Below, one piece after another: positions 6,525 through 63,032 of a stretch of DNA of 63,514 nt (positions within the stretch are counted from its first letter, which is position 1; every line of letters begins with the position of its first letter). A program made the translations under genes and the position numbers. The notes beneath the pieces were generated by a model that had not been told where the DNA came from, did no database searches, and saw only the letters and a program-made list of their open reading frames with translations. Origin of the DNA: an uncultured Rikenellaceae bacterium (lineage in GTDB: Bacteria; Bacteroidota; Bacteroidia; Bacteroidales; VadinHA17); contig CAZTDW010000004.1 of the NCBI GenBank assembly GCA_964611835.1, positions 1-63,514 of the forward strand, given 5' to 3'.

Positions 6525-6776
6525 TAAAGCAGATATCGGAGCTGATAATACCAGCAATAATGGATCCGCTTTGCGGAAAAAAGTAAACCGTAAATCCGGA
6601 AACTATCGGACAGAACCTTTAGGAGATTGAATATCAATATCATAACAAAAACAGGAAAACATACAAGCGATTTATTATGCGTGTATCTTTTCCCTAGTGC
6701 GAAACTTGAATTAATAATATTATGGATTATTAACCACAAGTAAAATAGGAATTTACACAGGAAGATCAAGATTTAT

Positions 6777-6805
6777 TTGACTTCGGCTTTTTGTCGGTGT
6801 AACTT
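6777..6805 (+). promoter_or_regulatory. Conserved promoter-like motif, copy 1 (TTGACT-N17-TAACTT)
   Basis: AGATTTATTTGACTTCGGCTTTTTGTCGGTGTAACTTTA. Lies 106 nt upstream of the 6911 start. Confidence 0.55.
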
Positions 6806-6910
6806 TACTTTTAAATCATTAGAAACGACAACGGTAAACATAAAGTTATCTTATAATCTTTCGGTCATCTCATTATGTAACTTTTCGTGGAATCTTAAAA
6901 AAGTAATGCT

Positions 6911-7372
6911 ATGAAAAAGATTTTTACACTTTCAGCAGGTATTCTGTTATTAGTGACATTTTTTATTGCAGGGGGATGCAATGGTACATCAAGCAATCAA
7001 GACGGGAGAGGCCCTAAAGTAACTACCATTCATATAAAGGCGGTTATAAAGGACGGTAAGAAACACCTTAAATTATGTGATTCAAATGGTAATATAGCCA
7101 CTGATCATCTGATAACCAGTGTTGATACCGGATCCATTATTATATGGAAACTAAAAATCTTCAGCAATATAAATAGCATAGAAAGGGTATATTCCACGGA
7201 AAAGGAAAGGGAAATATTTAGGACAGATCCGAAGGAAGGCCCGGAAAATGTATTCACGCTTAAAGTGCCTAAAAATGTACCGCGCGGGGTGATGGAAAAG
7301 TATAGAATCAGATTCATCCACAAGGATGGTAAAGAAGCAGAGATTGATCCATACATTAGGATAGAAGATTAA
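6911..7372 (+). CDS. Hypothetical lipoprotein
   Basis: Signal peptide plus lipobox (FFIAGGC). 153 aa. A 13-nt gap separates it from the downstream sensor phosphatase. Confidence 0.6.
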   Translation: MKKIFTLSAGILLLVTFFIAGGCNGTSSNQDGRGPKVTTIHIKAVIKDGKKHLKLCDSNGNIATDHLITSVDTGSIIIWKLKIFSNINSIERVYSTEKEREIFRTDPKEGPENVFTLKVPKNVPRGVMEKYRIRFIHKDGKEAEIDPYIRIED

Positions 7373-7385
7373 TTATAATAGCTAA

Positions 7386-9425
7386 GTGTATTACAGGTTA
7401 TTTGCAGTTTTTTTCAGGATCCTTTTTACAGCAGTCGCTTTACCAACTGTTGTTATCGGGCAATCCACCGACAGCCTGCTCTATTTACTGGAAAACAACC
7501 TGGTTAAAGATGATTCAGCCCGATACGACCTGTTAAAAAAGATCATCAAGGGTACACCTGATTTGGAAAGCAAGCTTAAGTATTGTGACCAGGCTATTAA
7601 ACTTGCTGAAAATTTAAATATCATACTTCCTGATTCATATATCTTAAAAGGCACCTGTTATATGGATTCGGGGGACCTTGCGGCAGCTCTCGAATGGTTT
7701 TTCAGGGCAGCAGATTACTGTAAGAAACAGGACAATAACAAGGGGCTGGCAAGAGCATATACATTTTTAGCTGAAGCATACAACAAGCAGGGGAACCATA
7801 ATAATGAGAAATATTACCTCCGTAATGCCATTGAAATATTCAGGCACCAGAAGGATTCGCTTAAGCTTGCTAATATCCTGACTAATTTGGGATATGCATA
7901 TTACAGCATGGGGCAATATGACAGTGCGTTGATCTATTTTTCCGGCACAGCTGATATATACAAAGACATGGACCGAAAATCTGACTACGCGTATTGTATC
8001 GGAAATTCAGGACTGGTATATTCAAAACTATCAGATTTTAACCGTGCGGAAGACTACCTGCTTCAGGCAATAGAAATACTTACAAAACTGGATGATAAGC
8101 GGGCCGTCACCGAATATTTGATAGAATATGCAAACATTCTTCAGCATAAGGGAGAAATTGACAGGGCTGCCGCCGTTGCAAATCAGGCATTTGTCAGCTC
8201 CGTAAAGAACGGATATAAAGAATATGAACGAGATGCAGCCCATGAACTTGCCCGGCTGTATCAGTTTTCAGGAAGATATGACAGCGCTTTCCATTATCTG
8301 ACGGTGTATATAAATGCCAACGACAGTATCAGAAATGATCAAGCCATTCAGAAAATGGCCGATCTGCGTACAGAATTTGAAGTAGCCAGAAAGCAGGCGG
8401 AGGTAGAGATACTGGAGAAAAACAAGGTAACCCAGCGAATTGTCAATTTCGGACTGGCAGTCATCCTGTTGCTGGCCATAGGGCTAATACTGCTCTATTA
8501 TTCAAGCCTCAAACGTTCGAAAAAGCTTATGGCGGCTCTTGATGAACGCCGGATAATGCTGGAAAAACAGAGCAGCGAACTTAAAGAAATGAACAATACA
8601 ATTGTAAAAGCCCATGAAGAGCTGAAACAATTGTATGAGGTCACCAATGCACAGAAGGAAGAAATAATAAGCAGCATTAACTATGCGGAAAGAATCCAGA
8701 AAGCAGTCCTTCCACCGGAGGATTATATTAAAGAGTTAATTAATGAACATTTCATATTCTATCAGCCAAAAGAGATCGTAAGCGGTGATTTCTACTGGGT
8801 AAAGCAGATAAATCAGTATATCATTCTTGTTTCTGCTGACTGTACGGGTCATGGGGTACCGGGAGCCTTGATGAGCATGCTTGGTATAAGCTATCTGAAC
8901 GAAATTGTTCAGCGCAAGGAAATAACGATGGCAAATCAGGTCCTGAATGAGCTGAGAAAGGAAATCAAGCACTCCCTGCGGCAAACCGGGAAAAAAGAAG
9001 AATCAAGAGACGGGATTGATATGGCTTTGGTGGTTATTGATACTTCCACTGGTATGATGCAATATTCAGGTGCATTCAGTCCGCTTTATATTGTAAGCCA
9101 TGATAACGGTGAACCGGCACTAAAAGAATTAAAAGCTGATCAGATGCCGGTCGGGGTACACTTTTCGAGCGACAAGCCATTTACCAATCATGAATTTAAG
9201 CTTGAAATAGGAGATACTTTTTACATCTCAACGGATGGTTTTATTGATCAGACCGGGGGCAGTAACAAGACCAGATTCGGCAGCAATAATTTCAGGAAAC
9301 TTCTCCTGGAGATTCACGACAACCCCCTTTTCGAACAAAAGAAAATTTTACAGCAGACTCTTACAGACTGGATGGGAAATAATCCCCAGAGAGATGATAT
9401 CCTGGTGATAGGTGCAAGATTGTAA
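7386..9425 (+). CDS. TPR-repeat membrane sensor with C-terminal PP2C/SpoIIE-type phosphatase domain
   Basis: GTG start and N-terminal hydrophobic segment. About 7 TPR-like repeats, a TM helix (FGLAVILLLAIGLILLYY) and a coiled coil. SpoIIE motifs GDFYWV, ADCTGHGVPGALMS, STDGFIDQ and RDDILVIG. Confidence 0.8.
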   Translation: MYYRLFAVFFRILFTAVALPTVVIGQSTDSLLYLLENNLVKDDSARYDLLKKIIKGTPDLESKLKYCDQAIKLAENLNIILPDSYILKGTCYMDSGDLAAALEWFFRAADYCKKQDNNKGLARAYTFLAEAYNKQGNHNNEKYYLRNAIEIFRHQKDSLKLANILTNLGYAYYSMGQYDSALIYFSGTADIYKDMDRKSDYAYCIGNSGLVYSKLSDFNRAEDYLLQAIEILTKLDDKRAVTEYLIEYANILQHKGEIDRAAAVANQAFVSSVKNGYKEYERDAAHELARLYQFSGRYDSAFHYLTVYINANDSIRNDQAIQKMADLRTEFEVARKQAEVEILEKNKVTQRIVNFGLAVILLLAIGLILLYYSSLKRSKKLMAALDERRIMLEKQSSELKEMNNTIVKAHEELKQLYEVTNAQKEEIISSINYAERIQKAVLPPEDYIKELINEHFIFYQPKEIVSGDFYWVKQINQYIILVSADCTGHGVPGALMSMLGISYLNEIVQRKEITMANQVLNELRKEIKHSLRQTGKKEESRDGIDMALVVIDTSTGMMQYSGAFSPLYIVSHDNGEPALKELKADQMPVGVHFSSDKPFTNHEFKLEIGDTFYISTDGFIDQTGGSNKTRFGSNNFRKLLLEIHDNPLFEQKKILQQTLTDWMGNNPQRDDILVIGARL

Positions 9426-9468
9426 AATTGTAGCTGTAAAAATGATATGAAAAGCTTTGGTATTCTTC

Positions 9469-11485: not shown

Positions 11486-11592
11486 GGCAATTTATTGTTA
11501 TGATTAAACAAATATATTATTTGATTTTAGAAAAGCTGAATTTCTCCCGTATAAAAGATGCTCCGGAAAGTTATTCAGTGGCTTAGATTTAT

Positions 11593-11621
11593 TTGACTTC
11601 AGTCTGCTGTTGGTGTAAATT
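11593..11621 (+). promoter_or_regulatory. Conserved promoter-like motif, copy 2
   Basis: TTAGATTTATTTGACTTCAGTCTGCTGTTGGTGTAAATTGC. Lies 58 nt upstream of the 11679 start. Confidence 0.5.
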
Positions 11622-11678
11622 GCATGATTATACAACATTTGCAATAGTTTATTTTCTGCACTTGTAAATTCTTAACAA

Positions 11679-12173
11679 ATGAAAACAATCCCGTATCTTG
11701 TAATTGCCATAATAATCTGTTCCTGCCAAACAAAAACCCAAATTATACATGTTGATATGAGTGAATCAGAAGAAGCCGTTAAAAAAGTACTGGAAGCACA
11801 CTGGTCTGCAGTAAAAGCAAAAGATGCCGATGCAGTTATAGCCCTGGTAACAGATGATTTTCTTTCATGCGGCTCTGATCCGGAAGAATTCTGGAATAAG
11901 ACAGATATGTACAATACCGTTAAACGGATGTTTGGCAATACGGAATTAAAAACAGATATCACAGTCGATAAACGTGAAATACGAATTGCCGGAGATGGCA
12001 ATTCAGCAATTGCCCTGGAGCAGATGTATTTGAAACCTTTCAGTCAGAAGATGCCAGTCCGCACCATATATCATCTCGTAAAAGAAAATAATACATGGCT
12101 GATTGATTTTACAAGCACCGGGTTTATTCCGAAAAACGAAGATATAGGAAAACTCAATAAGGCACTGGAGTAA
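11679..12173 (+). CDS. NTF2-like (SnoaL/DUF4440-type) lipoprotein
   Basis: Lipobox (IIICSC). EEAVKKVLEAHWSAVKAKDADAVIALVTDDF is typical of the DUF4440/SnoaL fold. Confidence 0.55.
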   Translation: MKTIPYLVIAIIICSCQTKTQIIHVDMSESEEAVKKVLEAHWSAVKAKDADAVIALVTDDFLSCGSDPEEFWNKTDMYNTVKRMFGNTELKTDITVDKREIRIAGDGNSAIALEQMYLKPFSQKMPVRTIYHLVKENNTWLIDFTSTGFIPKNEDIGKLNKALE

Positions 12174-13835: not shown

Positions 13836-14102
13836 TTAATCAGTTTTAATTAATAATTATAATTCAATCGTGGATTCAATGTCGATCTGGAAGATTTTCT
13901 GAGAAATGTTAATTCATCCCTGAACAGGCGATTATTAATTAATCTATTCATAATCAATAATATGGAATAAGATATATGAATTATTTACTATAATATTCCA
14001 GGGGTACCTTGTTATAACAATTGACAGTTCAAAAGGTTCATAGCACCTTGTGGAAAACCTGGTCACAGTGGGAACCGGTTTTTCCAATACACTTAGATTT
14101 AT

Positions 14103-14131
14103 TTGACTTCGGATTTCTGATGGTGTAACTT
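14103..14131 (+). promoter_or_regulatory. Conserved promoter-like motif, copy 3
   Basis: TTAGATTTATTTGACTTCGGATTTCTGATGGTGTAACTTAG. Lies 91 nt upstream of the 14222 start. Confidence 0.55.
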
Positions 14132-14221
14132 AGAATATCATTGTTGGATGACAGATTTTCTGATTAAGAATAAGAGGAACCAGATTAATTACTGGCTAAA
14201 TAATCAAAACACTTAAATATT

Positions 14222-16141
14222 ATGAAAACGATCGTTGACCTTCTGGAGAACAGTGCACAGAAGTTTAGTGACAATCCCTATCTTCTTGAAAAAAGGGGAG
14301 ACAAGTATGAAGCTGTAACTTTCCGGGAAACCAGGCAGCAGGTCTTTAAGGTTGCGGCAGGACTTTTAACTCTTGGGATCAAGAAAGGCGACAGGATAGC
14401 ATTATTGTCTGAATCCAGGACTGACTGGGTGGTAAGTGAACTTGGTATTTTGTACACAGGTGCCGTGAGTGTTCCGCTTTCTATCTTATTAAAGGAAAGC
14501 AATGATCTGAAGTTCAGGTTAAACCATTCAGAATCAAGATGGGTGATAGTTTCAGGTCTCCAGTATGACAAAATAAATTCCATCAGGAAAGACCTTCAGA
14601 GCCTTGAAAAAGTGATTCTTCTTGATGAGAGGGAGACCTATGACACTGATGAGATATTCATAGGGAAGGTCAGGAGTCTGGGAGAAGAATATCTGAGCAG
14701 GAACCCGGATAAATTCACCGATACATTCAGATCGGTGGGTCCTGATGATTATGCAAATATTTGTTACACTTCGGGAACGACAGCTGATCCCAAGGGAATA
14801 ATCCTGACCCACAGGAATTACACAGCCAATATTGAGCAGGCACTGACACTTTTTGACGTTCCTGAATGGTGGTCGACACTGCTGATACTTCCCTGGGATC
14901 ATTCATTCGCCCATACGGTCGGAATTTATATAATGCTGGCTGTCGGAGCAAGTCTTGCGGCAGTTCAGTCAGGAAAATCCTACCTTGACAGTCTGAAGCA
15001 TATTCCTCAAAATATTAAGGAGATAAGACCTGTTTTTCTCTTCAGTGCACCGGCCCTGGCGAAAAACCTGAGAAAAGGAATTGAAAAAGGTATCAGGGAC
15101 AAAGGATCTGTCATTGAAAAGCTGTTCAGACATGCATTAAAGATTGCATATTGTTATAACGGCATTGGCTTGGACCGCGGGAAAGGATTCAGGGTCTTTC
15201 TGAAACCGCCTTACTTTCTTTATGATCTTATTTTGTTCAAAAAGATCAGGGCAAGCTTTGGCGGAAGATTAAAGTTTTTCATCGGAGGAGCAGCATTGCT
15301 TGATATAGAACTCCAGAAATTCTTCCTGGCAATCGGGATCCCGATGCTCCAGGGATATGGCCTGACGGAGGCTTCGCCTGTGATTTCAGGAAATACAGAA
15401 AAAAGATTCAAATTAGGATCCTCCGGATTGCTGGTTAAAAACCTGAATCTGAAAATATGCGATGAGGATGGTAATGAGCTTGCTATGGGGGAAAAAGGGG
15501 AGATAGTCATACGTGGAGAAAATGTAATGAAAGGATACTGGAAGAACGAAACTGCCACCAGGGATGCCATACGCAATGGATGGCTGTTTACGGGGGATAT
15601 GGGATACATGGACCAGGACGGATTCCTGTTCGTGCTTGGAAGGTATAAAAGTCTTCTTATTTCAGACGATGGTGAAAAGTACAGTCCGGAAGGAATAGAA
15701 GAAACAATAACTGACAGGTCTGTCTTTATCGATCAGATGATGCTGTATAATAACCAGAACAAATACACTGTTGCCCTGGTGGTGCCAAACAGTGATGCAT
15801 TGATAAGATGGGCCAGAAGCAAAAATATCGGTCTTACTGATGAAACTGGTTTTACCGCAGTATTAAATGAATTAAAATCTGTTTTCAACCAGTATATGCC
15901 TGAAGGGGTATATGGTGACCTTTTCCCGTCAAGGTGGTTACCTTCTGCCATTGCTGTTCTCGATGAACCATTCAATGCCGATAACAAGCAATTGAACAGC
16001 CTCGGGAAGATGGTAAGGGCAAAGATCATTGAAAAACATAGGGATACGATAGAATACCTTTACACACCTGAAGCAAAGAATATCATTAATCCCAGGAATC
16101 TTGAATCAATAAAGAAACTGCTAAAGCCAGCTTCCATGTAG
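14222..16141 (+). CDS. Long-chain acyl-CoA synthetase (AMP-dependent synthetase/ligase)
   Basis: AMP-binding motifs YTSGTTADPKGIILTHRN, GYGLTE and TGDMGYMDQDGFLFVLGRYKS. 639 aa. Confidence 0.85.
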   Translation: MKTIVDLLENSAQKFSDNPYLLEKRGDKYEAVTFRETRQQVFKVAAGLLTLGIKKGDRIALLSESRTDWVVSELGILYTGAVSVPLSILLKESNDLKFRLNHSESRWVIVSGLQYDKINSIRKDLQSLEKVILLDERETYDTDEIFIGKVRSLGEEYLSRNPDKFTDTFRSVGPDDYANICYTSGTTADPKGIILTHRNYTANIEQALTLFDVPEWWSTLLILPWDHSFAHTVGIYIMLAVGASLAAVQSGKSYLDSLKHIPQNIKEIRPVFLFSAPALAKNLRKGIEKGIRDKGSVIEKLFRHALKIAYCYNGIGLDRGKGFRVFLKPPYFLYDLILFKKIRASFGGRLKFFIGGAALLDIELQKFFLAIGIPMLQGYGLTEASPVISGNTEKRFKLGSSGLLVKNLNLKICDEDGNELAMGEKGEIVIRGENVMKGYWKNETATRDAIRNGWLFTGDMGYMDQDGFLFVLGRYKSLLISDDGEKYSPEGIEETITDRSVFIDQMMLYNNQNKYTVALVVPNSDALIRWARSKNIGLTDETGFTAVLNELKSVFNQYMPEGVYGDLFPSRWLPSAIAVLDEPFNADNKQLNSLGKMVRAKIIEKHRDTIEYLYTPEAKNIINPRNLESIKKLLKPASM

Positions 16142-16196
16142 TTGGTTCTGATAAGAATAAGGTAATTCAAAGGGCAAGGTATGGACATAGGTTTAT

Positions 16197-16225
16197 TTGA
16201 CTTCGGATTTTTAACGTCGTAACTT
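16197..16225 (+). promoter_or_regulatory. Conserved promoter-like motif, copy 4, convergent on the 3' end of the TIR gene
   Basis: GGTTTATTTGACTTCGGATTTTTAACGTCGTAACTTTAG. The only + strand ORF downstream is an 18-codon micro-ORF (16245-16301) that overlaps the TIR gene stop. Confidence 0.45.
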
Positions 16226-16297
16226 TAGAAAACAATAGCATATTATGAAAACTAAATTCCTTTCACGGATTAAGCAGAGAAGACATCTATTGAACAG

Positions 16298-18631
16298 CTA
16301 ATTATTTTTCTGCCTTGCAACAGCCTGTTCGGCTTCCTTTAAATCATTTTCAAGGTCATTACTGTAGCCTGTCCATTTTTCGAAGACTTCCTTTAAAATA
16401 AGCAGTGCTTCTTCATGTTTGCCAAGCTTATGAAGAGCCAGTCCTTTCATCCAGAGAAGGTCAAGGTCGTCAGGAGCCCTTTCAAGGCCTTTCATGGCTA
16501 ATTCAAGGCCTTCATTTATATTGATCCCCGATCTTATTAATATCCGGCTTAGGTTATAGATCCGGGCAGTGTTTTCAGGTTCAAGATCATAGGCTTTCCT
16601 GGAATATTTCTCTGCTGTAATTGTATCCTTTCCCGATAAATACAAATAAGCAACAGCCAACTCTTCAAATGATTTGGAGTAATTATTTCCTGATAAATAT
16701 GATCTGAGCTCAGAAATATTGTTTCCGGCAGCAAGGGTATCTCCCAGCATAACATTACTGCTTCCCTGATATGCAATTAACCAGGGATCATTTGGCTTGA
16801 TCTGTAATCCCTTTTGACTAATCCTTATTGCTGATTCCGGTTTATCAGCCAGAAGCAATGCCTCGCAATAAGCTCTGTAATATCTGTCATATTTCCAGTC
16901 ACTACCTCTTTCAAGGCTGATTTCTTCGACTTTTTCAAATGCCTCCACTGCCTTATCATACAAATCCGAAAAATTTGAATAGGTCAAACCAATGTCTAAC
17001 CATAATAATCGGGATTCTATTCCGGACTTTTCAAGTAAATCACAATACCGTAGTATATCCTGCTGGCTTTTACCATAATAACAAGCATGCCACATTCCCA
17101 GCCAGTTTTGATACTTTGCCGGGAGTCTTTCCCTCCCTTCATAAGCTTTTTGAGTCCATAATACAGATTGATCCCAACTCCCGCTTGAACCCCAGAAACT
17201 ATAAGCAAACGCAATGTAAAATTTAGCAAAAGTAAAGGTTGAGTCAATCTCCAGGGCTCTTTTCAATGATACGACAGCAGACTCGTAATCCGAAGTTAAG
17301 ATCAGGTTTACTCCTTCAATAAAATACCTGTATGCTTCGGCTGAATTCGGATAAACCTCCCTGAAATCATTATCCGCTTTTTGTTCAAGGGACCTGATCT
17401 CGAGGTAGTCTTTCAGTTTATTGCATAATGAATCTGTGAGCGCAAGATATTCTGAGGACTTTAAATCCCCTTCAACCTGATTGGTATAGACAATGTCCCC
17501 GGTTTTGGTATCAACCAGCTTGGAGAGGATCCGGTATCTGCCTCCCGTCCCCTGGAAACTGCCTGATATATATGTTTCAGCATTGACCTTTTCAGCCACC
17601 TTTCTGGCCCGGGAGGGTGAAATTCCTGCCGTGAAAACCTCATGCATGCTCTCCATTGCTTCAAACATGGTCTGGTCGTCGCGAAGGGCAAGTTCGGAAG
17701 AACCGGCAAGCCCGTTGATAATCAGGGATGAAATACCCCGCTGGAACCAATTCAGCGTGGTATCCCCGGTGAGATTCTCAAAGGGCATAACGGCAATTGA
17801 AATTCTCCCGTCCGTGTCTCTTATGGCTTCAAATTTGTCCTTTTTGAATATTATCGGATATAGTAAAATTCCCGCTATTATTATCAATGCGCTTATGGCA
17901 AGAGGAGCGAGCAGCTTATATTTCCCCCGGGAGGTATGTTTTGCAAATAACGATTTTCTATCTTCATTTACAGATTCTCCGGGCAAGACCCTGGTCTGAT
18001 TGTGTTCCCTCCCTTCCCGGACCTGTCCTGCCTTTATTCCAAGAATGATCTCTTTTATCGCATGTGCTGTTTTGTTTATCTGGTCATTATAGTAGGTTTT
18101 GTTGAGATTGTCCTGCGGGTGTTCCTCATTCACTCGCAGGGGCCGGTTTACCCCTGAGGATGTTCTGAACACAAAATCCATTGCCCTCAGTACGGTACCT
18201 GTTTCCTTCTCGAACAGCTTTACGTCCTCCGGTTCAATATCATGGATCCGGATGGGCAGAATCCTGCTTGCTACATTTCCGCTCCTGAGTTTTATATCCT
18301 TTCCATAGGGATCGTTTTTAACCATCCCGAGAAAAGGCAAAAACTCATACTGCCATGCATAACTGCCGGGATCGCAATAGGTCTGAGAAAGAACAGGAAT
18401 GAATATGAGGCATTTCAGTTTGTCCTCAAGGCTCTTTTCCACATGGTGCGTTTCCTGAAGGCGGTCGTGGGGATTTTCATCGAAATATACTGAAACATCT
18501 TCCTTAAATGTAGCTTCCAGTTCGGCCTTCAGGGCTTCAACGAAATTACTAACCCACTTGTCGCCTTTATTATCCTTCGGGCGGTAGGAAATAAAGATGT
18601 CATAATTATATCCTTCAACGATGCCTGACAT
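16298..18631 (-). CDS. TIR domain / single TM / TolB-N-like / TPR membrane protein (paralog 1)
   Basis: The N-terminus has the TIR signature YDIFISYRPKD and CLIFIPVLSQTY..SYAWQYEF (Glu retained), with no signal peptide. TM helix LLAPLAISALIIIAGILLYPIIF. Then ISIAVMPFENLTGD, followed by about 400 aa of TPR repeats. Confidence 0.8.
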   Translation of the reverse strand: MSGIVEGYNYDIFISYRPKDNKGDKWVSNFVEALKAELEATFKEDVSVYFDENPHDRLQETHHVEKSLEDKLKCLIFIPVLSQTYCDPGSYAWQYEFLPFLGMVKNDPYGKDIKLRSGNVASRILPIRIHDIEPEDVKLFEKETGTVLRAMDFVFRTSSGVNRPLRVNEEHPQDNLNKTYYNDQINKTAHAIKEIILGIKAGQVREGREHNQTRVLPGESVNEDRKSLFAKHTSRGKYKLLAPLAISALIIIAGILLYPIIFKKDKFEAIRDTDGRISIAVMPFENLTGDTTLNWFQRGISSLIINGLAGSSELALRDDQTMFEAMESMHEVFTAGISPSRARKVAEKVNAETYISGSFQGTGGRYRILSKLVDTKTGDIVYTNQVEGDLKSSEYLALTDSLCNKLKDYLEIRSLEQKADNDFREVYPNSAEAYRYFIEGVNLILTSDYESAVVSLKRALEIDSTFTFAKFYIAFAYSFWGSSGSWDQSVLWTQKAYEGRERLPAKYQNWLGMWHACYYGKSQQDILRYCDLLEKSGIESRLLWLDIGLTYSNFSDLYDKAVEAFEKVEEISLERGSDWKYDRYYRAYCEALLLADKPESAIRISQKGLQIKPNDPWLIAYQGSSNVMLGDTLAAGNNISELRSYLSGNNYSKSFEELAVAYLYLSGKDTITAEKYSRKAYDLEPENTARIYNLSRILIRSGININEGLELAMKGLERAPDDLDLLWMKGLALHKLGKHEEALLILKEVFEKWTGYSNDLENDLKEAEQAVARQKNN

Positions 18632-18656
18632 CTGAGGATTACTTGTTTCACTATCA

Positions 18657-18685
18657 AATTTAAACCTTAATTAAACCAAAGTCAA
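18657..18685 (-). promoter_or_regulatory. Promoter of TIR paralog 1 (TTGACT-N17-TAAATTTG)
   Basis: Minus strand reads TTGACTTTGGTTTAATTAAGGTTTAAATTTG, a perfect Bacteroidota -7 box TAnnTTTG, about 25 nt upstream of the ATG. Nearly identical to the region upstream of TIR paralog 2. Confidence 0.6.
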
Positions 18686-18775
18686 TTTTCTTTCATTTGT
18701 GAGAAGAAACTGAACCTAATTAGTTGAGCCACGAAGAGTTAATGCAATGATATATAACGAGTTGGCTGAGTTTAT

Positions 18776-18804
18776 TTGATTTCCGATTTTTGGAGGTATG
18801 ACTT
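18776..18804 (+). promoter_or_regulatory. Conserved promoter-like motif, copy 5 (more divergent)
   Basis: GAGTTTATTTGATTTCCGATTTTTGGAGGTATGACTTTC. Lies 166 nt upstream of the 18970 GTG start. Confidence 0.4.
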
Positions 18805-18969
18805 TCATCAATATTAGCGACTTACACTTAATGAATAAAATATTTATTTTTAACTCAAATATTTACCTGCGAAACTTTTACGTATCATCTTGCACAAAAA
18901 GAAAATGAAAATAATGAAGGTTCCACGCGAACCACTTAATTTACAATAATATAATAAAACTATTTTCTT

Positions 18970-20460
18970 GTGAAAACTATAGTGTTCCAGATAATCATTT
19001 TACTGATTGTAACTTCATGCGGAGCTGACAGAAATCAAGCTGACAAGATTATGGTTTCTGTTGACTGGATTGATACAGTTAACATATCCAAATCATACGC
19101 CACCCTTCAGGTTATCCCCAATCCTTCACACCAGACTGGTTCTCATCTTCGTGAACCTCTATGGAACTCATTAAAGGAACTTAAGGCTCATTATGTTCGC
19201 TACAGTCCCTGGGGCATTTATCCCGAACTGAAGATAGCAGCGTTGAAGCCTCCAACCCCTACTAAAACATACTGGGATTTTTCATCTCTTGATCCCTTGT
19301 TTGATGATTTCATGTCAGCAATGGGAGGAAGGCTTGTTGTAATGAATTATCAGGCAATTCCGGGATGGATGTTCCTTGATCCACGTCCGGAGAAACCCGG
19401 CAAGGAGATTGGCAGCCTGTTAAGAGATAGTTCAGGTATGGAACTTGCAGAATATTTTGCCAGGATCGTTGCATGGTACACAAAAGGAGGATTCAGGGAT
19501 GAACACGGAAGATGGCATGAATCCGGACACAGATATAACCCGGGCATTTGGGAGATCCTGAATGAACCTGACCATGAGAGTATTGCAATGACAAAAGAGC
19601 TATATACCTCACTTTATGATGCAGTGGCCGGGGAGATACTGAAAGTGCAGCCAGATATGAAATTTATGGGCCTGTCCATGGCCAATATGCATCTGGCACA
19701 GGAATGGACCTCTTACTTCCTGGATAGGGATAATCATAAAAAGGATGTTCCGATCGACTACATTTCATATCATATGTATGCAACACTTCCCGGGAAAAAT
19801 GATAGTCCGGAACTCTATCCCATGAATGTTTTCAATCAGGCCGACAATCATCTGAAGACCATAAGCATTGTTGATTCGATACGTCAGAAATTATCACCGG
19901 ATACAAGGATTGATATTAATGAGAGCGGGATCCTGTTCAGGGAACCCCCGGCAGGGTGGGGAAGGATGAAAGGTGATTCTATCGATCTTTCTTTCTGGAA
20001 CCTCTCTGCAGCTTATTATGCATACATATATGCCGGTCTTTCAAGACTGGGAGTTAACATTATCGGAAAATCAACATTGTGGTCTGATCCGAATGACTGG
20101 CCTGAAGTTTCCTTGTTAAACTGGAAGAACGGTAAGCCCAATGCGAGATATCATGTGCTTAAACTTATTATAGAAAATTTTGGTCCGGGCGACGCTATTG
20201 TTAAAACTTTCACAGGTCATTCCGGAGATGAAAGCCAGCTTCTTGCACAGGGATTCATAACATCTGACGGGACGAGGAAGATATTATTAGTCAACAAGAG
20301 CAGTAACGATCTTAAAGTAAGAATCAAGGGACTCAAAACGGGGAATGTCTGTTATGTGGATCAGACGACAGGATTTGAACCTCCAGCTTCAATGGAAATT
20401 TCGGGATCAGACCTGATGATCCGAAATTTTGGGGTGGCTGTTTTGATAGTAAAAAGATAA
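18970..20460 (+). CDS. Clan GH-A glycoside hydrolase (GH39-like), lipoprotein
   Basis: GTG start and lipobox (LIVTSCG). WEILNEPDHE is an NEP acid/base-type motif and IDINESG is a candidate nucleophile. The family assignment is tentative. Confidence 0.5.
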   Translation: MKTIVFQIIILLIVTSCGADRNQADKIMVSVDWIDTVNISKSYATLQVIPNPSHQTGSHLREPLWNSLKELKAHYVRYSPWGIYPELKIAALKPPTPTKTYWDFSSLDPLFDDFMSAMGGRLVVMNYQAIPGWMFLDPRPEKPGKEIGSLLRDSSGMELAEYFARIVAWYTKGGFRDEHGRWHESGHRYNPGIWEILNEPDHESIAMTKELYTSLYDAVAGEILKVQPDMKFMGLSMANMHLAQEWTSYFLDRDNHKKDVPIDYISYHMYATLPGKNDSPELYPMNVFNQADNHLKTISIVDSIRQKLSPDTRIDINESGILFREPPAGWGRMKGDSIDLSFWNLSAAYYAYIYAGLSRLGVNIIGKSTLWSDPNDWPEVSLLNWKNGKPNARYHVLKLIIENFGPGDAIVKTFTGHSGDESQLLAQGFITSDGTRKILLVNKSSNDLKVRIKGLKTGNVCYVDQTTGFEPPASMEISGSDLMIRNFGVAVLIVKR

Positions 20461-24306: not shown

Positions 24307-24642
24307 CTATTTCTTTTTTGATTTCAATACTAGATTGTATGAGTGGTCGATCCATGAAAACACTTCCTTATCAGGAACAGATCCATCGATAAAAATAGTG
24401 TTCCAGTGTTTTTTATTCATATGATAACCCGGTATTACGGTTGAATGTCTTTCTCTTAATTCAACAGCCAGGACCGGGTCGCATTTCAGATTAATACTAA
24501 GCTCACCTTCGAGATTGACAAGGGCAAAGATCCGTCCCTCTGTTTTGAAAACAAGTGTGTCATCGCCAAACGGGAAGCTTTCGGTGACATTTCTTTTCGA
24601 AATACAGTATTCTCTCAGGGTTTCGATATTCATAAGCTGCAA
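24307..24642 (-). CDS. MmcQ/YjbR-family protein
   Basis: 111 aa. The pattern ESFPFGDDTLVFKTEGRIFAL...PGYHMNKKHWNTI is typical of YjbR. Confidence 0.7.
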   Translation of the reverse strand: MQLMNIETLREYCISKRNVTESFPFGDDTLVFKTEGRIFALVNLEGELSINLKCDPVLAVELRERHSTVIPGYHMNKKHWNTIFIDGSVPDKEVFSWIDHSYNLVLKSKKK

Positions 24643-24963
24643 CGGAGGATGGTGGTAATATCTTTAACACGATTTAGTGTCTGCAAGTTATGATATCATT
24701 ATGTATTTGTCAAGTCTTTGCGGCTTCATACAAGTTCAGAGCTTTTAAAGGATATCCTTGCAGATATTGCTGATGCCGGGGTGCCGATCATGTTTGTCAG
24801 GTCTGATAAAGAAAGATACATTTCACAAAATAACAGTTATTTAAAGGTGATGCAGGATTGTCAACAGAATATGGTATAAAGTGGTCAATGACCCTGGTTT
24901 GTGTACAGCGAACATATTAAGGAATCGATTGTTAATGATTAATTAGCTTAATAATCAATTACC

Positions 24964-28037: not shown

Positions 28038-30173
28038 TTATTTACCGGGGAGATTGAGTTTCTTAACAAATTCATCGAATCGGGGATCACCGTGCAGATT
28101 AGTGCCCCAATCCATTACAGCTACCCAGGGAAGCCAGATATGGCGAGGTTCGAATGCAAGCCATTTGAATGCTTCATCTTTGTTATTCAGAGCTGAATTA
28201 AGCATAACCTGGCCCAATGCAACGAATGGATCAGGTCTCAGTTTATTCAGGCGATCCAACATCTCCCTGGCTTCACTTTCCCTGCCGGACCTTGCATAGG
28301 TAATACCCAGTTTGAATATCCATTTTGGGTATTTTTCTGCAAGTTTCTTATGTGCTGCAATAGCTTCATCAACATTCCCCATTGCCAGATAAGCATCACC
28401 CAAACCCCATAAACCCTGGTTGTAGTCAGGACGTATCTCAAGAGATTTCAATGCTTCCTGCAGGGCTTTTTCTTTCTTTCCAATATGAAGATATAACCAA
28501 CCCAGCTGTGCTGCTATTTCCGGGGCAAACGGATCATATTTTCTTGCCAGCAGGTTTTCCGCCAGGGCTTCATCGTTCCTGCCAAATAATAAAAGAGCCC
28601 ATGCATAATGAAAATGAGCGTATGCATTGTTCGGATTGATACTTATAGCTTTTCTGAAATATTTTTCTGCTTCCTTGAAATTCCACATAGAATATTCGTA
28701 TGCTTGGGCAAGTGCGAAATAAGTTTCGGCCAGGGTAGAGTCAAGCTTAATTGCCTGTAAAGCTGCAGCTTCACCCTTAATCATGGCATCACCCGGGTCC
28801 TGTGGGCCATGGGCAATTTCAAAATATCCTGAAGCTAGCGCAGCATGAGCAAATGCATCTGCCGGATCAAGATTAATTGCCTGATTCAGATAATCAAATC
28901 CCTGTTTAATAGACTCCGGGGTTTCATGCCTCAAACTGTACATACCCCTTACATAAAGTTTGTATGTTTCGGGATTTATCGTCTGCGGAGCCGATAGTGC
29001 CGCAAGATTCTCATTTGTCAGGTCAAATCCTATTTTGCCTGCTATCTCGTTGGCAATATTGTGATGAAGTTTGAAGACATTCCTCAGGTCACTTTTAAAT
29101 GGCCGGGTCCAAATCAGTTTTTCTTCAGGATAAGCCTGGATCAGCCTGAGTTGAAGATAAATTGAGTCTGAAACATTTAAAACAGATCCCTCGATAATAT
29201 AATCAATATCAATTTCATGTGCCATTTCCGGTATGGGTCTGGATGAACCGGCAATTGCAGCAGCAGTTCTTCCTGAAAGAACCCGCAGAGGTCTGACCTG
29301 GCTTATCATGCAAAGTTCAGAAACCATAGCATCATTCTGTCCTTGTACAAGATAATCCTGGTCCTGATTCCCGGTATTATTTTTAAAGGGTAATACTACA
29401 ATTGATTTCTCAGGTTCCACCTGGCCGGTAAGCAATTCAGGAATGAAGAGTAAACCCAAAATTGTCATCACCAGTAAAATAGCTGAAACGGCTATTATAG
29501 CTTTAATTTTGGATTTCCTTGGTAATGCATGGGAATCAACCCATTTCCCCGGAACCTCTTCGGGCATTAGTTCATTCTGCCCGATAGAGGTAATAATCTC
29601 CCTTATTGCCAGGGCAATTTTATTGATCTGGTTCCTGTAATTTGTTTTGTTAAGATTTTTCTCTTCACTGTCTTTTGGAGTAAGCGATCTGTTTATGCCG
29701 GGTTCCTTATAAATAAATTCAACTCCCCTCAATACACCTCCCAGAACCATCTCACATTCCTTAATATCATTAATTTCGTGATCGTGTATTCTGACCGGCA
29801 TCACCCGTGATGCCACGTTACCACCACGCAATTTAACCTTTAAGCCCAGCTTATCCTGACTGGCCAACCCGACAAATGCCTTAAACTCATGCTCCCAGGC
29901 GAATGATTTCGGATCGCAGTATGTACGGGAGATGACGGGAATAAATATCAGGCATTTCAGCTTTTCCTTCAGCGATTCATCAACATCATGTGTCTCCAGG
30001 AGTCCGTCATGAGGATTAATATCAAAGTATAGGGTAATTTCTTCCTTAAAGGTAGCCTCCAGCTCCTTTTGAAGGTTGTCGACAAATTCTGTTACCCAGC
30101 CGTCATATTTGTTGTCTTTCTGGCGGTAGCTGATGAAGATGTCGTAATTATATCCCTGGATAAGGCTTGGCAT
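28038..30173 (-). CDS. TIR domain / single TM / TolB-N-like / TPR membrane protein (paralog 2)
   Basis: YDIFISYRQKD and CLIFIPVISRTY..SFAWEHEF (Glu retained). TM helix AIIAVSAILLVMTILGLLFI. Then KSIVVLPFKNNTGN...DYIIEGSV, followed by TPR repeats. The TIR region is about 60% identical to paralog 1 by eye. Confidence 0.8.
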   Translation of the reverse strand: MPSLIQGYNYDIFISYRQKDNKYDGWVTEFVDNLQKELEATFKEEITLYFDINPHDGLLETHDVDESLKEKLKCLIFIPVISRTYCDPKSFAWEHEFKAFVGLASQDKLGLKVKLRGGNVASRVMPVRIHDHEINDIKECEMVLGGVLRGVEFIYKEPGINRSLTPKDSEEKNLNKTNYRNQINKIALAIREIITSIGQNELMPEEVPGKWVDSHALPRKSKIKAIIAVSAILLVMTILGLLFIPELLTGQVEPEKSIVVLPFKNNTGNQDQDYLVQGQNDAMVSELCMISQVRPLRVLSGRTAAAIAGSSRPIPEMAHEIDIDYIIEGSVLNVSDSIYLQLRLIQAYPEEKLIWTRPFKSDLRNVFKLHHNIANEIAGKIGFDLTNENLAALSAPQTINPETYKLYVRGMYSLRHETPESIKQGFDYLNQAINLDPADAFAHAALASGYFEIAHGPQDPGDAMIKGEAAALQAIKLDSTLAETYFALAQAYEYSMWNFKEAEKYFRKAISINPNNAYAHFHYAWALLLFGRNDEALAENLLARKYDPFAPEIAAQLGWLYLHIGKKEKALQEALKSLEIRPDYNQGLWGLGDAYLAMGNVDEAIAAHKKLAEKYPKWIFKLGITYARSGRESEAREMLDRLNKLRPDPFVALGQVMLNSALNNKDEAFKWLAFEPRHIWLPWVAVMDWGTNLHGDPRFDEFVKKLNLPGK

Positions 30174-30198
30174 GGAGGCTTAGTTTGTATCACTGTCA

Positions 30199-30227
30199 AA
30201 TTTAAACCTTATTAATGCCAAAGTCAA
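30199..30227 (-). promoter_or_regulatory. Promoter of TIR paralog 2 (TTGACT-N17-TAAATTTG)
   Basis: Minus strand reads TTGACTTTGGCATTAATAAGGTTTAAATTTG. The surrounding ~65 nt are conserved with 18632-18700. Confidence 0.6.
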
Positions 30228-30321
30228 TTTTCTTTCTTCTTGTGAAACAACAACAGTAGTTTAAAGTCTCAGCACGAATGTTTTTAACGTTATGATTTAC
30301 AAATTGTTGATTTAGATTTGT

Positions 30322-30350
30322 CTGACTTCAGATTTTTGTTGGTGTAGCTT
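30322..30350 (+). promoter_or_regulatory. Conserved promoter-like motif, copy 6
   Basis: TTTAGATTTGTCTGACTTCAGATTTTTGTTGGTGTAGCTTTA. Lies 155 nt upstream of the 30505 start. Confidence 0.45.
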
Positions 30351-30504
30351 TAACCGAAAATTGCAAAATCCATGAACATTACAAGATGCTCATTTGTTTA
30401 TTTATATAAATGTTTTTCAGGCCAATTAATTAAAATTATATGGACTGAAATCATTGAGGGATGCCTTTCGGACTTATAGTTAATTTACCTTAATAACTCA
30501 GGTC

Positions 30505-52245: not shown

Positions 52246-52605
52246 TCATTTTTGTTTTTTTGATCCTGCTCTGTGAAGAAGAACAGTAGTTTCATCGATG
52301 GTAACTATATGTCCTTTCCCTGACTTCTCAAAACAGCTTTGAACAGAGTCGAAGAATGCATTTATTCTCTCCGGAGTATCGATAATTTCAACTATTAATG
52401 GAATCTTCTCTCCGATTTCCCAGAGCTTGTCGGAATAAATTTCACTGCTTGATCCGAATCCCATAATTCCTTTAAGTACCGTAGCTCCAGCAATGCCCGA
52501 TTTCTTTGCTGTAAAAACAATATGTTCATAAAGCGGTATATGACCGAATTTATCAGTTGAACTGATGTAAATACGTAGTCGTTTAGCCTTTTCTTTTTGA
52601 TTCAT
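52246..52605 (-). CDS. DUF190 (PII-like) protein, CrcB-associated
   Basis: 119 aa. RLRIYISSTDKFGHIPLYEHIV...GATVLKGIMGFG. Its start overlaps the crcB stop (ATGA overlap). Confidence 0.7.
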   Translation of the reverse strand: MNQKEKAKRLRIYISSTDKFGHIPLYEHIVFTAKKSGIAGATVLKGIMGFGSSSEIYSDKLWEIGEKIPLIVEIIDTPERINAFFDSVQSCFEKSGKGHIVTIDETTVLLHRAGSKKQK

Positions 52606-52979
52606 AATAACTTAATTATTATCATACCAAGTAATGTTGCAGCAATACCAAGGAAGACGCTGAATGTTGTATAAAGTAAGAAATAGAAGTATGCACCATC
52701 TCTCAGCAAACCAAGGCTTTCACCTGAAAAGGTCGAAAAAGTGGTGTATCCTCCGCAGAAACCAATTGCAAGGAACATTTTCCATATCGGACTCAGAAGA
52801 TCGTTCTTCTCCGAAATCCCATAAATAACCCCCAGCAGAAAACATCCGCTTATATTGACCAGGAATGTACCAAGAGGAAAAATGCTAATAAAGCTGTTCT
52901 GAATAAATCTTGAGGTTAGGAAACGTGCAACACTCCCCAGGAAACCGCCCAATCCAATTGCCAATATCGTCTTGATCAT
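52602..52979 (-). CDS. crcB: Fluoride ion channel CrcB/FluC
   Basis: 125 aa, 4 TM helices. Motifs GGFLGSVARF and GFCGGYTTFSTF. Confidence 0.9.
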   Translation of the reverse strand: MIKTILAIGLGGFLGSVARFLTSRFIQNSFISIFPLGTFLVNISGCFLLGVIYGISEKNDLLSPIWKMFLAIGFCGGYTTFSTFSGESLGLLRDGAYFYFLLYTTFSVFLGIAATLLGMIIIKLL

Positions 52980-56623: not shown

Positions 56624-56925
56624 AATTGAGCCTAAATTTCATGTTCCATTAAAATCATTCGAATCGATGATTGCCCAGGCGGAACACACTGGATTTAAAA
56701 TTATTGAAAGACCAAAAGTAATTTTTAGCCGCGCAATATTGTTAAAATCAGATATCCCGGAATAAATGATGATTTTGCCATACGGCAAAAAATTATGTGT
56801 GTCTTTATTACAAGTTTCGACCTTCCCGGATTCCTCAAAAGGAGGACAGATATCAATAAAATTTAGGAACCCCCAAATCAGCAATTTCAGATGTATCCAT
56901 GTTAAGATGTAGTGATTAAAATTAC

Positions 56926-56954
56926 TTGACATTGGCTTTTTGATTGTGTAACTT
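56926..56954 (+). promoter_or_regulatory. Conserved promoter-like motif, copy 7
   Basis: TTACTTGACATTGGCTTTTTGATTGTGTAACTTAC. Lies 26 nt upstream of the 56980 start. Confidence 0.5.
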
Positions 56955-56979
56955 ACACAATAACTTAACCTGTTTCAAC

Positions 56980-57375
56980 ATGAAAACATCTACAAAAGTA
57001 ATTCAATGGATTCCGAGGATTCTGTGCATAATGGCTATTCTTTTTATTAGTTTATTTGCGCTGGATTCTATTTCATCTGAACGCACATTCTGGCAAAATA
57101 CAGGGGCTTTTCTGATGCACCTTATACCTTCATTTGTTTTGCTTGCCATACTTATTGTTGCCTGGAAATGGGAAAATATTGGTGGAATTATTCTCATAAT
57201 TGCTACGGTAGCTTTTAGTATTTTCGTTTTCAACATTAATTACAATCAAAGACATTTTACACTGCAGCAAAGCCTCATAAATGTTTTAATATTATGTTTA
57301 CCGTTTGCTATTGCCGGCATTTTGTTTATCATAAGTCACATCAGGAAGAAAAAAGAAGTCACCAATGTCCAGTAG
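56980..57375 (+). CDS. Hypothetical 4-TM membrane protein
   Basis: Four hydrophobic helices. The start is placed at MKTSTKV (56980). Confidence 0.5.
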   Translation: MKTSTKVIQWIPRILCIMAILFISLFALDSISSERTFWQNTGAFLMHLIPSFVLLAILIVAWKWENIGGIILIIATVAFSIFVFNINYNQRHFTLQQSLINVLILCLPFAIAGILFIISHIRKKKEVTNVQ

Positions 57376-61011: not shown

Positions 61012-61300
61012 AAAACAAAATCAGATTTCATCGTTTTGACCATCACGAAATGATCTGTTAATCACTTAATTCCTGGCCCGAAACTGGCATTAATTTTAAA
61101 AACGCCTGGTATTGTTTGTGCTGGTGTCTTATTTTTCTTAAAATCTGTCATGCTTTGACCACTTCAGAAGACGGTCTGAAAACACAATTAAACCTTTAGT
61201 TTAAGGGCTCATGAATATTTATCATGATGAGGTCATGTTAAAACAAATTCATCATCTTACCGTTTTAAGTCATTAAGAAACTAATGGAATCCGGAAACAC

Positions 61301-62245: not shown

Positions 62246-62435
62246 TTCCAGCTAATTATTACATAAGTAGGTGATCCAGATCACATTTCGCCGGTACTAA
62301 TTGACCAATTGAAGACGGAGTCAATCTCATGTACTATTGATAAATATGAAAATGGTATTCTTTCCGGCAGAATATGGTCAAGGCTATCGGCTTGTGCAGT
62401 AACTCTGTAATATTAAAAGAGTTGACATAGTTTTT

Positions 62436-62464
62436 TTGACTTTGGGATTTTTGTGGTGTAACTT
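62436..62464 (+). promoter_or_regulatory. Conserved promoter-like motif, copy 8
   Basis: TTTTTTTGACTTTGGGATTTTTGTGGTGTAACTTAT. Lies 46 nt upstream of the 62510 start. Confidence 0.55.
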
Positions 62465-62509
62465 ATATTTTAAATCGTAGACTTTAATTAATAACAAAGC
62501 ATTAAAACT

Positions 62510-62929
62510 ATGGAAAAATCAGGAAAAGTTGGAGCACAAATCTATGGTTATACAGTTTGTGTAGTTGCTGTAATCGCATTTCTAATATCCGTTACCACTC
62601 TTGTAAATGCTATTATTGATCTTCCAGACCCAATTCATGGAGGAATCTTGTTCCCTCAAGGACCCAGTCTGGCATCTTTTGACAATTATAAGATGGATAT
62701 TCTAAAGTCACTTCAAAAAGGAGATGAGTCTTCAAAAACCTCATACGTTCCTGACGATCAAACTTTGCATGCAATGTATGAAGCTGCAAGGAACGATAAA
62801 ATACAATCTGTTAAACACCAGTCAAATAAGTCAATCATCGTTGGGGGTCTCATAATTTTTATTTGCGTCATTCTTTTTATAATTCATTGGAGATGGGTGC
62901 GAAAACTTAATAAATTGGCAGCATCATAA
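62510..62929 (+). CDS. Hypothetical 2-TM membrane protein
   Basis: N- and C-terminal hydrophobic helices. 139 aa. Confidence 0.45.
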   Translation: MEKSGKVGAQIYGYTVCVVAVIAFLISVTTLVNAIIDLPDPIHGGILFPQGPSLASFDNYKMDILKSLQKGDESSKTSYVPDDQTLHAMYEAARNDKIQSVKHQSNKSIIVGGLIIFICVILFIIHWRWVRKLNKLAAS

Positions 62930-63003
62930 AACATCATCTTTCATTTAGTAAGAAATATCACATAGATATATAACCAAACTATCATTTTATTTGATGAGGG
63001 ATA

Positions 63004-63032
63004 TTGACTTTGGTGTAACCATAGAGTAACTT
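63004..63032 (+). promoter_or_regulatory. Conserved promoter-like motif, copy 9 (hybrid or duplicated)
   Basis: ATTTTATTTGATGAGGGATATTGACTTTGGTGTAACCATAGAGTAACTTTA. Lies 114 nt upstream of ATG 63146. Confidence 0.45.

Follow-up and report, generated by a model that had tools for sequence, protein, structure and literature searches.

What reads a promoter-like unit whose spacer is conserved together with its boxes? The question is raised by a 63,514-nt contig of an uncultured Rikenellaceae bacterium (VadinHA17 lineage; assembly GCA_964611835.1, contig CAZTDW010000004.1), called the window here in its whole length, along which the core TTGACT-N17-TAACTT recurs. Most of what is known of promoter recognition in Bacteroidota comes from a few cultured species, where it involves one unusual primary sigma factor, sigma-54 and many extracytoplasmic function (ECF) sigmas; to our knowledge, the motifs of most Bacteroidota ECF sigmas have not been established. 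From the comparisons described below we consider it probable that the unit is a discrete promoter class, spread across an uncultured Bacteroidales clade, for whose recognition RNA polymerase uses a dedicated specificity factor, so that its genes would form one large regulon.

Copies of the motif in the window

The initial annotation had listed nine copies of the core, all on the + strand and each 20–166 nt upstream of a + strand start codon. The exact core was found five times in the window, always on the + strand (6777, 14103, 16197, 62436 and 63004), while 100 dinucleotide-preserving shuffles of the window gave an expectation of 0.00, indicating that the repetition is not due to chance. The other four sites named at that stage (11593, 56926, 18776 and 30322) depart from the core at one or two positions (Table 1), and despite these mismatches they share the spacer and an upstream block of ~10 nt with the exact-core sites in the alignment. 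Since a matrix made from the nine window sites would be circular, a second weight matrix was built from 120 sites, all of them from other genomes and thus independent of the window. Scanning the window with this matrix returned ten sites at 22–50 bits, eight on the + strand (6777, 11593, 14103, 16197, 18776, 30322, 56926 and 62436) and two on the − strand, with TTGAC starting at 18685 and 30227, which the first reading had missed. The scores were distributed bimodally, and because none in the window fell between 9 and 22 bits we regard the motif class as discrete.

Site 63004 reached 8.9 bits and shuffled windows up to 12.9 bits; as this is the background level, the site is not a member of the family by its spacer, and eight of the nine annotated copies are retained. 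The claim that all copies lie on the + strand fails with the two − strand sites (35.3 and 30.6 bits), and the distances to + strand start codons came to 19–165 nt, close to those annotated, with the reservation that the 'gene' after 16197 is an open reading frame (ORF) of 18 codons. The alignment bore out the annotated extent of the similarity, which starts ~10–12 nt before TTGAC and stops right after the −7 box. Only two of the ten window sites have a full TTTG in the −7 box, while the GTAAC part is retained. Approximately ten of the 35–40 transcription units of the window, roughly a quarter, would have this special promoter class.

Conservation in related genomes

A scan of one genome per species (GTDB) with the pattern TTGACTTYNGNNTNNTNNNGGTGTAANTT matched at least 114 stretches from at least 61 species-level metagenome-assembled genomes (MAGs). 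Among the matches listed, 59 were labelled Bacteroidales, 'Rikenellaceae', Bacteroidia or Bacteroidota, two were single contigs labelled Ignavibacteria and Atribacteria, one was a complete chromosome and none belonged to a cultured, named species; the closest of them to the window (L039) showed 77% nucleotide identity over 4 kb. The same pattern gave 0 matches in a viral contig collection, and a phage promoter or phage origin was rejected on that result.

The annotation had proposed a comparison of orthologous regions in relatives, and this showed that copies are kept. The SpoIIE operon ortholog in L028 also has a copy upstream, the DUF4440 homologue in L096 has one 27 nt before its ATG, the DUF7670 homologue in L013 has one 32 nt upstream, and the genes for TIR-like/TPR proteins described below retain theirs as well. 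Between the copies of orthologous genes, divergence is concentrated in the centre of the spacer.

Neighbouring copies in the related loci are mostly co-oriented (107 same-strand pairs vs 21 opposite), which accounts for the + strand bias of the first list. Arrays of up to five co-oriented copies within 8 kb, each before its own small gene, occur in L023, L024, L033, L097 and L101, and many copies directly follow the GC-rich hairpin and T-run of the previous gene, resulting in a cassette-like, monocistronic layout.

Several secreted-protein genes in different MAGs also share a conserved leader of ~90 nt from promoter to ATG (...AAGAATTTGGTTAATCAGGATCAnnGAAATTGATATTGCA...CTTATATCTAACTTCTTTTTATTAACTAAAATCTTTCAATTATG), found at L012:3580-3740, at L023:3690-3860 and 5120-5290, and on the − strand of L063, L091 and L104, with no Rfam match. 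This leader could be a cis-regulatory RNA or a leader common to paralogues. When Rfam was run on 18 related loci, only tRNAs and one DUF805b RNA were detected; the latter (RF02914, 46 bits; L104:6465-6500, − strand) lies directly before a small secreted-protein gene and is unrelated to the motif.

Position, direction and target genes

Only 1 of 164 sites was inside a long ORF, compared with 65% of random positions. Within 300 nt of 87% of the sites, but of 38% of the random positions, an ORF of 70 codons or more starts in the same direction, so the strand and position bias that the annotation had suggested checking is present. Between motif end and ATG there is a median of 55 nt, consistent with the lengths of 5′ untranslated regions reported for Bacteroidetes (PMC9723704). 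The core also fits the −33/−7 layout of Bacteroidota promoters, as had been supposed: the −7 box TAACTTTG agrees with TAnnTTTG, with T in 104/120 and G in 75/120 sites of the cross-genome set after TAACTT, and at every site the TTG of TTGAC precedes the TA of TAACTT by 20 nt, within the ~19–21 nt that this layout requires. From position, direction and box geometry we infer that the unit is a promoter.

It does not resemble the promoters of housekeeping genes. The upstream regions of 18 tRNA genes from the same MAGs all gave negative matrix scores (−11 to −30), and in most of them an A-rich stretch is followed by a plain TAyTTTTGC box, while TTGAC, GGTG and a T-rich spacer are lacking. Other genes of the window have plain boxes of the TAnnTTTG type (TATATTTG, TATTTTTG, TAGATTTG or TACTTTTG). 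These comparisons argue for a promoter class separate from the ordinary promoter of the lineage.

The genes behind the motif are also a distinct set. A strongly hydrophobic N-terminus was found in 81% of motif-downstream proteins and in 43% of the other ORFs of all loci (Fisher p = 3e-15), the latter being a control set of crude ORF calls that includes operon-internal genes. The most frequent Pfam families among 136 downstream proteins were Fib_succ_major (12), the Por_Secre_tail sorting domain of type IX secretion (T9SS; 11) and DUF4440/SnoaL (~9), followed by TPR and GYD, and no housekeeping family was present among these 136 in Pfam. Cytoplasmic proteins downstream of the motif included one HTH protein and no sigma.

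Structure of the unit

The consensus of the 120 cross-genome sites reads aAAATAAAn-TTGACTTyGGCTTTTTGcTGGTGTAACTTTGa. Positions left free by the search pattern were still conserved: G9 in 95/120, C11 in 85/120, T12 in 114/120, T14 and T15 each in 102/120, G17 in 82/120, T19 in 95/120, C27 in 92/120, T30 in 104/120 and G31 in 75/120. Spacer positions thus carry information of their own, a point that the annotation had named for checking. An A-run at −9 to −2 is conserved as well in these sites, and information is at background outside the limits of the motif.

Sites picked by the two boxes alone, with the seeds removed, numbered 89 in 791 kb of related loci, as opposed to 4.8 in shuffles. In these box-only sites TT(y)GG follows TTGAC and (g)GTG precedes TAAC, and the five central positions are the least informative. 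The spacing is rigid, with 45 non-seed sites for TTGAC-N17-GTAAMTT and two each for N16 and N18. Isolated halves are rare, orphans amounting to 2 of 115 left halves and 2 of 123 right halves. A poly-G run at L023:5120-5165 and an N run at L011:2726-2800 are assembly or masking artefacts, each of which removes the left half of one copy.

The annotated conservation of the 17-nt spacer holds for the free positions and for the box-only sites, but the centre varies along a continuum in related genomes (CTTTTTGCT, CTTAAACAA, TTAATTAAG) while boxes and spacing stay constant. What was described as a conserved spacer is therefore a firm inward extension of both boxes together with a preferred, non-obligatory T-rich centre.

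A second form, subclass b, has (G)TGACTyAGATTTAT upstream in place of the A-run, usually a C at position 8, GCAT downstream and the −7 box TAACTTGC. The upstream features of this form go together with the downstream ones (Fisher p = 0.0016), both subclasses are present within single MAGs, and the upstream block of subclass b is found in most + strand sites of the window. Across the set the −7 box ends mostly in TAACTTTG or TAACTTTA, while TAAnTTGC occurs in 17 of 185 sites, including 11593 in the window.

No dyad symmetry was detected in the motif. RNA folding of all ten window sites on both strands revealed no structure (z-scores −1.0 to +1.3), and an RNA element or hairpin recombination site was ruled out by this absence of a fold at all ten. 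Rfam gave no match in the window at gathering score and none at E ≤ 1 around site 6777, and the window has no tRNA genes.

A probable dedicated specificity factor and its alternatives

We propose that the unit, ~40 bp long and made of four elements with its hexamers exactly 17 bp apart, would be recognized as a whole by an RNA polymerase that carries a dedicated factor. The elements would be an upstream block that is A-rich (AAAATAAA) or has the form TGACTyAGATTTAT (subclass b); an extended −35/−33 box, TTGACTTyGG; a T-rich centre; and an extended −10/−7 box, GGTG-TAACTT(TG). The conservation of the spacer would then reflect contacts reaching inward from both boxes (TTyGG and GGTG) and a preferred T-tract. 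If the published −7 position of Bacteroidota applies, transcription start sites (TSSs) are predicted ~7 nt after TAACTT, 35 nt from the start of TTGACT (Table 1). The targets would in the main be genes for exported, surface and membrane proteins, mostly monocistronic and often co-oriented.

A sigma-like reader is preferred over the housekeeping holoenzyme alone because the information is bipartite, the spacing is fixed at 17 bp, the class is discrete and unlike housekeeping promoters, and the gene set is coherent. In the same way, the suggestion in the annotation of a dedicated regulon signature gains support from the position and direction of the sites, the rigid spacing, the dissimilarity to housekeeping promoters, the bias to exported proteins and the conservation in at least 61 genomes. 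The likeliest reader would be an alternative sigma, and the second a primary sigma with a clade-specific partner on the spacer; between an alternative sigma and an embedded operator, the two options that the annotation had named, the evidence cannot decide. What is said here of promoter activity, of the TSSs and of the kind of protein that reads the unit is inferred from sequence.

In its fullest form the proposal is tentative, and we hold it with less than even confidence. In a clade of uncultured environmental Bacteroidales, a promoter-specificity factor (a new sigma, or else a partner that binds RNA polymerase) would use this rigid 40-bp promoter at several hundred mostly monocistronic, co-oriented genes for exported or surface proteins (T9SS cargo, FISUMP lipoproteins and DUF4440 proteins), with sub-specificities a (AAAATAAA...TTTGA) and b (TGACTyAGATTTAT...TTGCAT) in one genome, and would thereby run a second 'secretome' programme beside sigma-A.

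Several observations weigh against a dedicated factor. Neither a sigma, a Cas12f-like nor a regulator gene was found in the window, and the motif is absent upstream of the only two ECF sigma genes found in the 791 kb of related loci. The boxes agree with the primary-sigma consensus TTG/TAnnTTTG and not with ECF (AAC/CGT) or sigma-54 signatures, so the housekeeping sigma may be the reader. Ten sites per 63.5 kb extrapolate to hundreds per genome, which is large for a typical alternative-sigma regulon. The continuum of spacer centres makes the conservation of the spacer partly a preference and not a requirement, and the bias to hydrophobic N-termini was measured against the crude control set mentioned above.

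An unlikely alternative, which stays live because the boxes also satisfy the primary-sigma consensus, is a super-consensus primary-sigma promoter that needs no extra factor and serves strongly expressed secreted-protein genes. Its parts would be an UP-like A-tract for the C-terminal domain of the alpha subunit (alpha-CTD), extended −33 and −7 boxes and an optimal 17-bp spacer. The A-rich block of the unit, at approximately −45 to −38, is placed like the proximal UP-element subsite of Escherichia coli; the decay of information from both boxes to the spacer centre in box-only sites and the many sites per genome are also compatible with such a promoter, as is the fit of TAACTTTG to TAnnTTTG with TTG 20 nt upstream (PMC7366714). 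However, the tRNA promoters, which would be expected to be the strongest of all, lack TTGAC, GGTG and the T-rich spacer and score negatively without exception, and the window scores are bimodal and do not form a continuum. Moreover, the spacing is invariant, whereas it is reported as variable in Bacteroides sigma-A promoters (PMC7366714), the downstream genes are biased to exported proteins, and the TTTG of the −7 box is poorly kept in the window while GTAAC is kept.

It is quite improbable, in our estimate, that a clade-specific global regulator has its site embedded in what is otherwise a primary-sigma promoter, where it would recognize repeated T(G/A)ACTTTG-like units that overlap both the spacer and the −35 box. 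The same principle is seen in Pho boxes, which take the place of the −35 element. Such a regulator could explain why the consensus contains the direct repeats TGACTTTG and TAACTTTG at a distance of exactly 22 bp, why the additional TGACTyAGATTTAT of subclass b, 15–16 nt upstream, is linked to C8 and GCAT (Fisher p = 0.0016), and why the commonest form has a strongly conserved spacer centre. Against it, boxes and spacing persist before orthologous genes even in variants whose spacer centre is quite different, and the bipartite profile of the box-only sites, with the centre least informative, is more sigma-like than operator-like; in addition, the motif lacks dyad symmetry, and a search of the neighbourhood found no gene for a regulator.

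We give very little credence to a dispersed or mobile promoter cassette, which the annotation had offered as a further option, or to a target of RNA-guided transcription by dCas12f-sigmaE: the sharp block boundaries at both ends, the unrelated genes downstream, the co-oriented arrays of terminator-promoter-gene units and the ~90-nt leader of some copies would suit them, and RNA-guided transcription, which needs no promoter motif, does exist in Bacteroidota (PMC13472631), but the copies have neither inverted (terminal) repeats nor secondary structure, isolated halves or guide-like partial copies are lacking beyond the 2/115 and 2/123 orphans, there were 0 viral-contig matches, copies are retained at orthologous genes with divergence mostly in the spacer centre, the window has no Cas12f-like or sigma gene, and the conservation is bipartite and longer than 30 nt, while guide targets comprise 14–16 nt by a 5′-G, with up to seven per guide (PMC13472631).

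One easily scanned motif seems to label a very large set of genes in many Bacteroidales of soil, sediment and digesters, all of them uncultured. If this is confirmed, the motif would provide a sequence handle to predict co-regulated secretome genes directly from MAGs, point to a sigma or regulator within reach of phylogenetic profiling, and supply a compact, strong and orthogonal promoter part for the engineering of Bacteroidales.

Comparison with described promoter classes

The promoter of the Bacteroidota primary sigma (sigma-ABfr or sigma-A) has a −33 TTTG and a −7 TAnnTTTG (Bayley 2000 and Vingadassalom 2005, cited in PMC7366714). The unit resembles it in its bipartite layout, in the −7 box TAACTTTG with TTG ~20 nt upstream, in its distance of 20–170 nt from start codons and in mRNAs without a Shine–Dalgarno requirement. 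Sigma-A promoters of Bacteroides thetaiotaomicron are reported to show variable box spacing and no spacer consensus (PMC7366714), whereas the unit has invariant spacing, an extension of both boxes (TTGACTTyGG and GGTG-TAAC), a T-rich spacer and an upstream block, and is missing from the tRNA and ordinary gene promoters examined in the same genomes. Its −35 box with the 17-bp spacer reads like the proteobacterial TTGACA.

Two non-canonical classes are also among the nearest. SM5 of Flavobacterium psychrophilum (TAnnTTGY, −12 to −5) is a promoter class outside the sigma-A consensus that has no assigned reader (PMC9723704), and the subclass b endings TAACTTGC or TAAATTGC correspond to TAnnTTGY at the −7 position. 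SM5, however, is defined by the −7 region only, neither a −35 box nor a consensus in the spacer being reported for it, and its genes concern lipopolysaccharide, amino-acid scavenging and gliding, while most sites here have TAACTTTG. PM2 of B. thetaiotaomicron is near-palindromic and enriched at oxidative-stress genes and small RNAs (PMC7366714). Like the unit, it is a non-canonical class of Bacteroidales; its elements lie near −10 and −30, and an alternative sigma has been suggested as its reader. The unit differs in having no dyad symmetry and in standing at exported-protein genes, a separation that is based on the description of PM2 and not on its sequence. The unit would also show that a non-canonical promoter class, of the kind of PM2 and SM5, can be dominant in certain lineages.

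In its working, though not in its family, the proposed system also recalls the general-stress sigmas. Sigma-B of Bacillus and sigma-S of E. coli have regulons of hundreds of mostly monocistronic genes, with many small lipoproteins or membrane proteins among them, and sigma-B promoters have rigid spacing, with the boxes GTTTAA-N12-14-GGGTAT. SpoIIE/PP2C-type phosphatases feed the partner-switching control of alternative sigmas in other phyla, and a PP2C gene of the SpoIIE/RsbU type (7386–9425) lies under the motif in the window, making it a possible lead to the motif's reader by analogy. The likeness ends there, since no such sigma gene was found and the boxes of the unit are unrelated to those of sigma-B.

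The dCas12f-sigmaE system is similar in that a short conserved DNA before several genes sets the start of RNA polymerase, yet its targets are few per genome and need no promoter boxes, in contrast with the canonical box geometry and the many copies observed here (PMC13472631); neither dcas12f nor a guide-like copy was present in the sequence examined. Two further readings of the boxes were rejected. For an ECF sigma, there is no CGT-type box, and if GTAAC is read as its −35 box, the region 16–17 nt further on (positions 43–48) has an information content of at most 0.14 bits. For sigma-54 (−24 TGGCAC and −12 TTGC, with 10 nt between GG and GC), the GG and GC of TTGGCTTTTTGC are 8 nt apart and not 12, counted from the first G of the one to the G of the other.

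A literature search for the motif strings retrieved only unrelated primer sequences, and searches on promoter classes and structures of Bacteroidetes, which yielded RNA-guided transcription, PM2 and SM5, did not retrieve a description of the unit. A fixed 17-bp spacing, extended boxes, a consensus in the spacer and this gene set are all absent from the descriptions of the canonical promoter, PM2 and SM5, and we rate the unit as a lineage-specific promoter class or regulon signature.

Individual copies and their neighbourhoods

The copies in the window, together with the genes that they would drive and two doubtful sites, are given in Table 1.

Table 1. Motif copies in the window with adjoining genes and predicted TSSs. 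Scores are from the matrix of 120 outside sites.
Feature	Position	Strand	Predicted TSS	Details
Motif copy (6777)	6767..6808	+	~6812	CAAGATTTAT-TTGACTTCGGCTTTTTGTCGGTGTAACTT-TAC; exact core; 50.5 bits
Genes putatively driven by the 6777 copy	6911-7372, 7386-9425	+		153-aa lipoprotein and TPR-SpoIIE (PP2C) phosphatase, one operon (Pfam)
Motif copy, subclass b (11593)	11583..11624	+	~11628	TTAGATTTAT upstream, −7 box TAAATTGC (TAnnTTGY); 1 core mismatch; 31.4 bits
Gene putatively driven by the 11593 copy	11679-12173	+		DUF4440/SnoaL-like lipoprotein (Pfam)
Motif copy (14103)	14093..14134	+	~14138	Exact core; 45.8 bits; before acyl-CoA synthetase-like gene 14222-16141 (AMP-binding, Pfam)
Orphan motif copy (16197)	16187..16228	+	~16232	Exact core; 27.9 bits; no downstream ORF ≥20 aa
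Motif copy (18685)	18654..18695	−	~18650	GAAAGAAAA-TTGACTTTGGTTTAATTAAGGTTTAAATT-TGA; 1 core mismatch; 35.3 bits; end 25 nt before ATG of 16298-18631
Motif copy, weakest of ten (18776)	18766..18807	+	~18811	2 core mismatches; 21.9 bits; before GH39-like lipoprotein gene 18970-20460 (Pfam)
Motif copy (30227)	30196..30237	−	~30192	1 core mismatch; 30.6 bits; end 25 nt before ATG of 28038-30173
Motif copy (30322)	30312..30353	+	~30357	2 core mismatches; 33.9 bits; before 93-aa ORF 30505-30786 (cytoplasmic, without signal peptide)
Motif copy (56926)	56916..56957	+	~56961	1 core mismatch; 39.0 bits; 25 nt before DUF7670 membrane protein gene 56980-57375 (Pfam)
Motif copy (62436)	62426..62467	+	~62471	Exact core; 28.9 bits; before 139-aa membrane protein gene 62510-62929
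Doubtful ninth copy (63004)	63004..63032	+		Boxes TTGACTTTGG and GTAACTTT only; exact core, spacer outside family; 8.9 bits
Boxes-only site	24685..24713	−		TTGACA-N17-TAACTTGC before YjbR-family gene 24307-24642 (Pfam); family geometry, unrelated spacer

The copy at 62436 is accompanied by a second TTGAC box 15 nt upstream (GTTGACATAGTTTTT-TTGACTTTGGGATTTTT). The boxes-only site at 24685–24713, with its subclass b ending, could belong to the class as a weak or an ancestral member. The orphan copy at 16197 is followed only by an 18-codon ORF at 16245–16301 (MKTKFLSRIKQRRHLLNS) and aims into the 3′ end and stop-codon region of the convergent TIR-like/TPR gene 16298–18631; it could be a remnant promoter, the promoter of a small-peptide gene or that of an antisense RNA. 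Its origin as a remnant of a membrane-protein gene with the sequence 'MK.HFLSRFDA.NLRK', which is led by the motif in L004, L032 and L042, was rejected, as the similarity was not significant. Elsewhere in the window, a crcB (fluoride channel) and DUF190 pair occupies 52246–52979 on the − strand, with no fluoride riboswitch detected by Rfam at gathering score.

Four of the copies form two back-to-back pairs on opposite strands, with ~90 nt between the members (18654–18807 and 30196–30353). Their − strand members precede the genes 16298–18631 and 28038–30173 (both − strand), which are paralogous and encode proteins of 777 and 711 aa with 38% identity. Both proteins start with the N-terminus 'YNYDIFISYRxKDNK', followed by a predicted membrane segment and TPR repeats, and the match of the N-termini to Pfam TIR_2 is below threshold (E = 0.006 and 0.02). 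The paired intergenic regions are themselves paralogous, having kept both motif blocks while the DNA in between diverged. Because 18776 and 30322 lie in these paralogous intergenic regions next to paralogous genes, they are not independent of each other; the genes led by the + strand members are nevertheless unrelated, one being GH39-like and the other the 93-aa ORF. The promoter pair at 30196–30353 is conserved in L048, with 78% identity over 152 nt. Homologues of the TIR-like/TPR genes are very common in the related loci (L011, L018, L025, L074, L084, L088, L090, L095, L100 and L107), and in other MAGs they have their own variant of the promoter, with a family-specific spacer, fixed 24–25 nt before the ATG.

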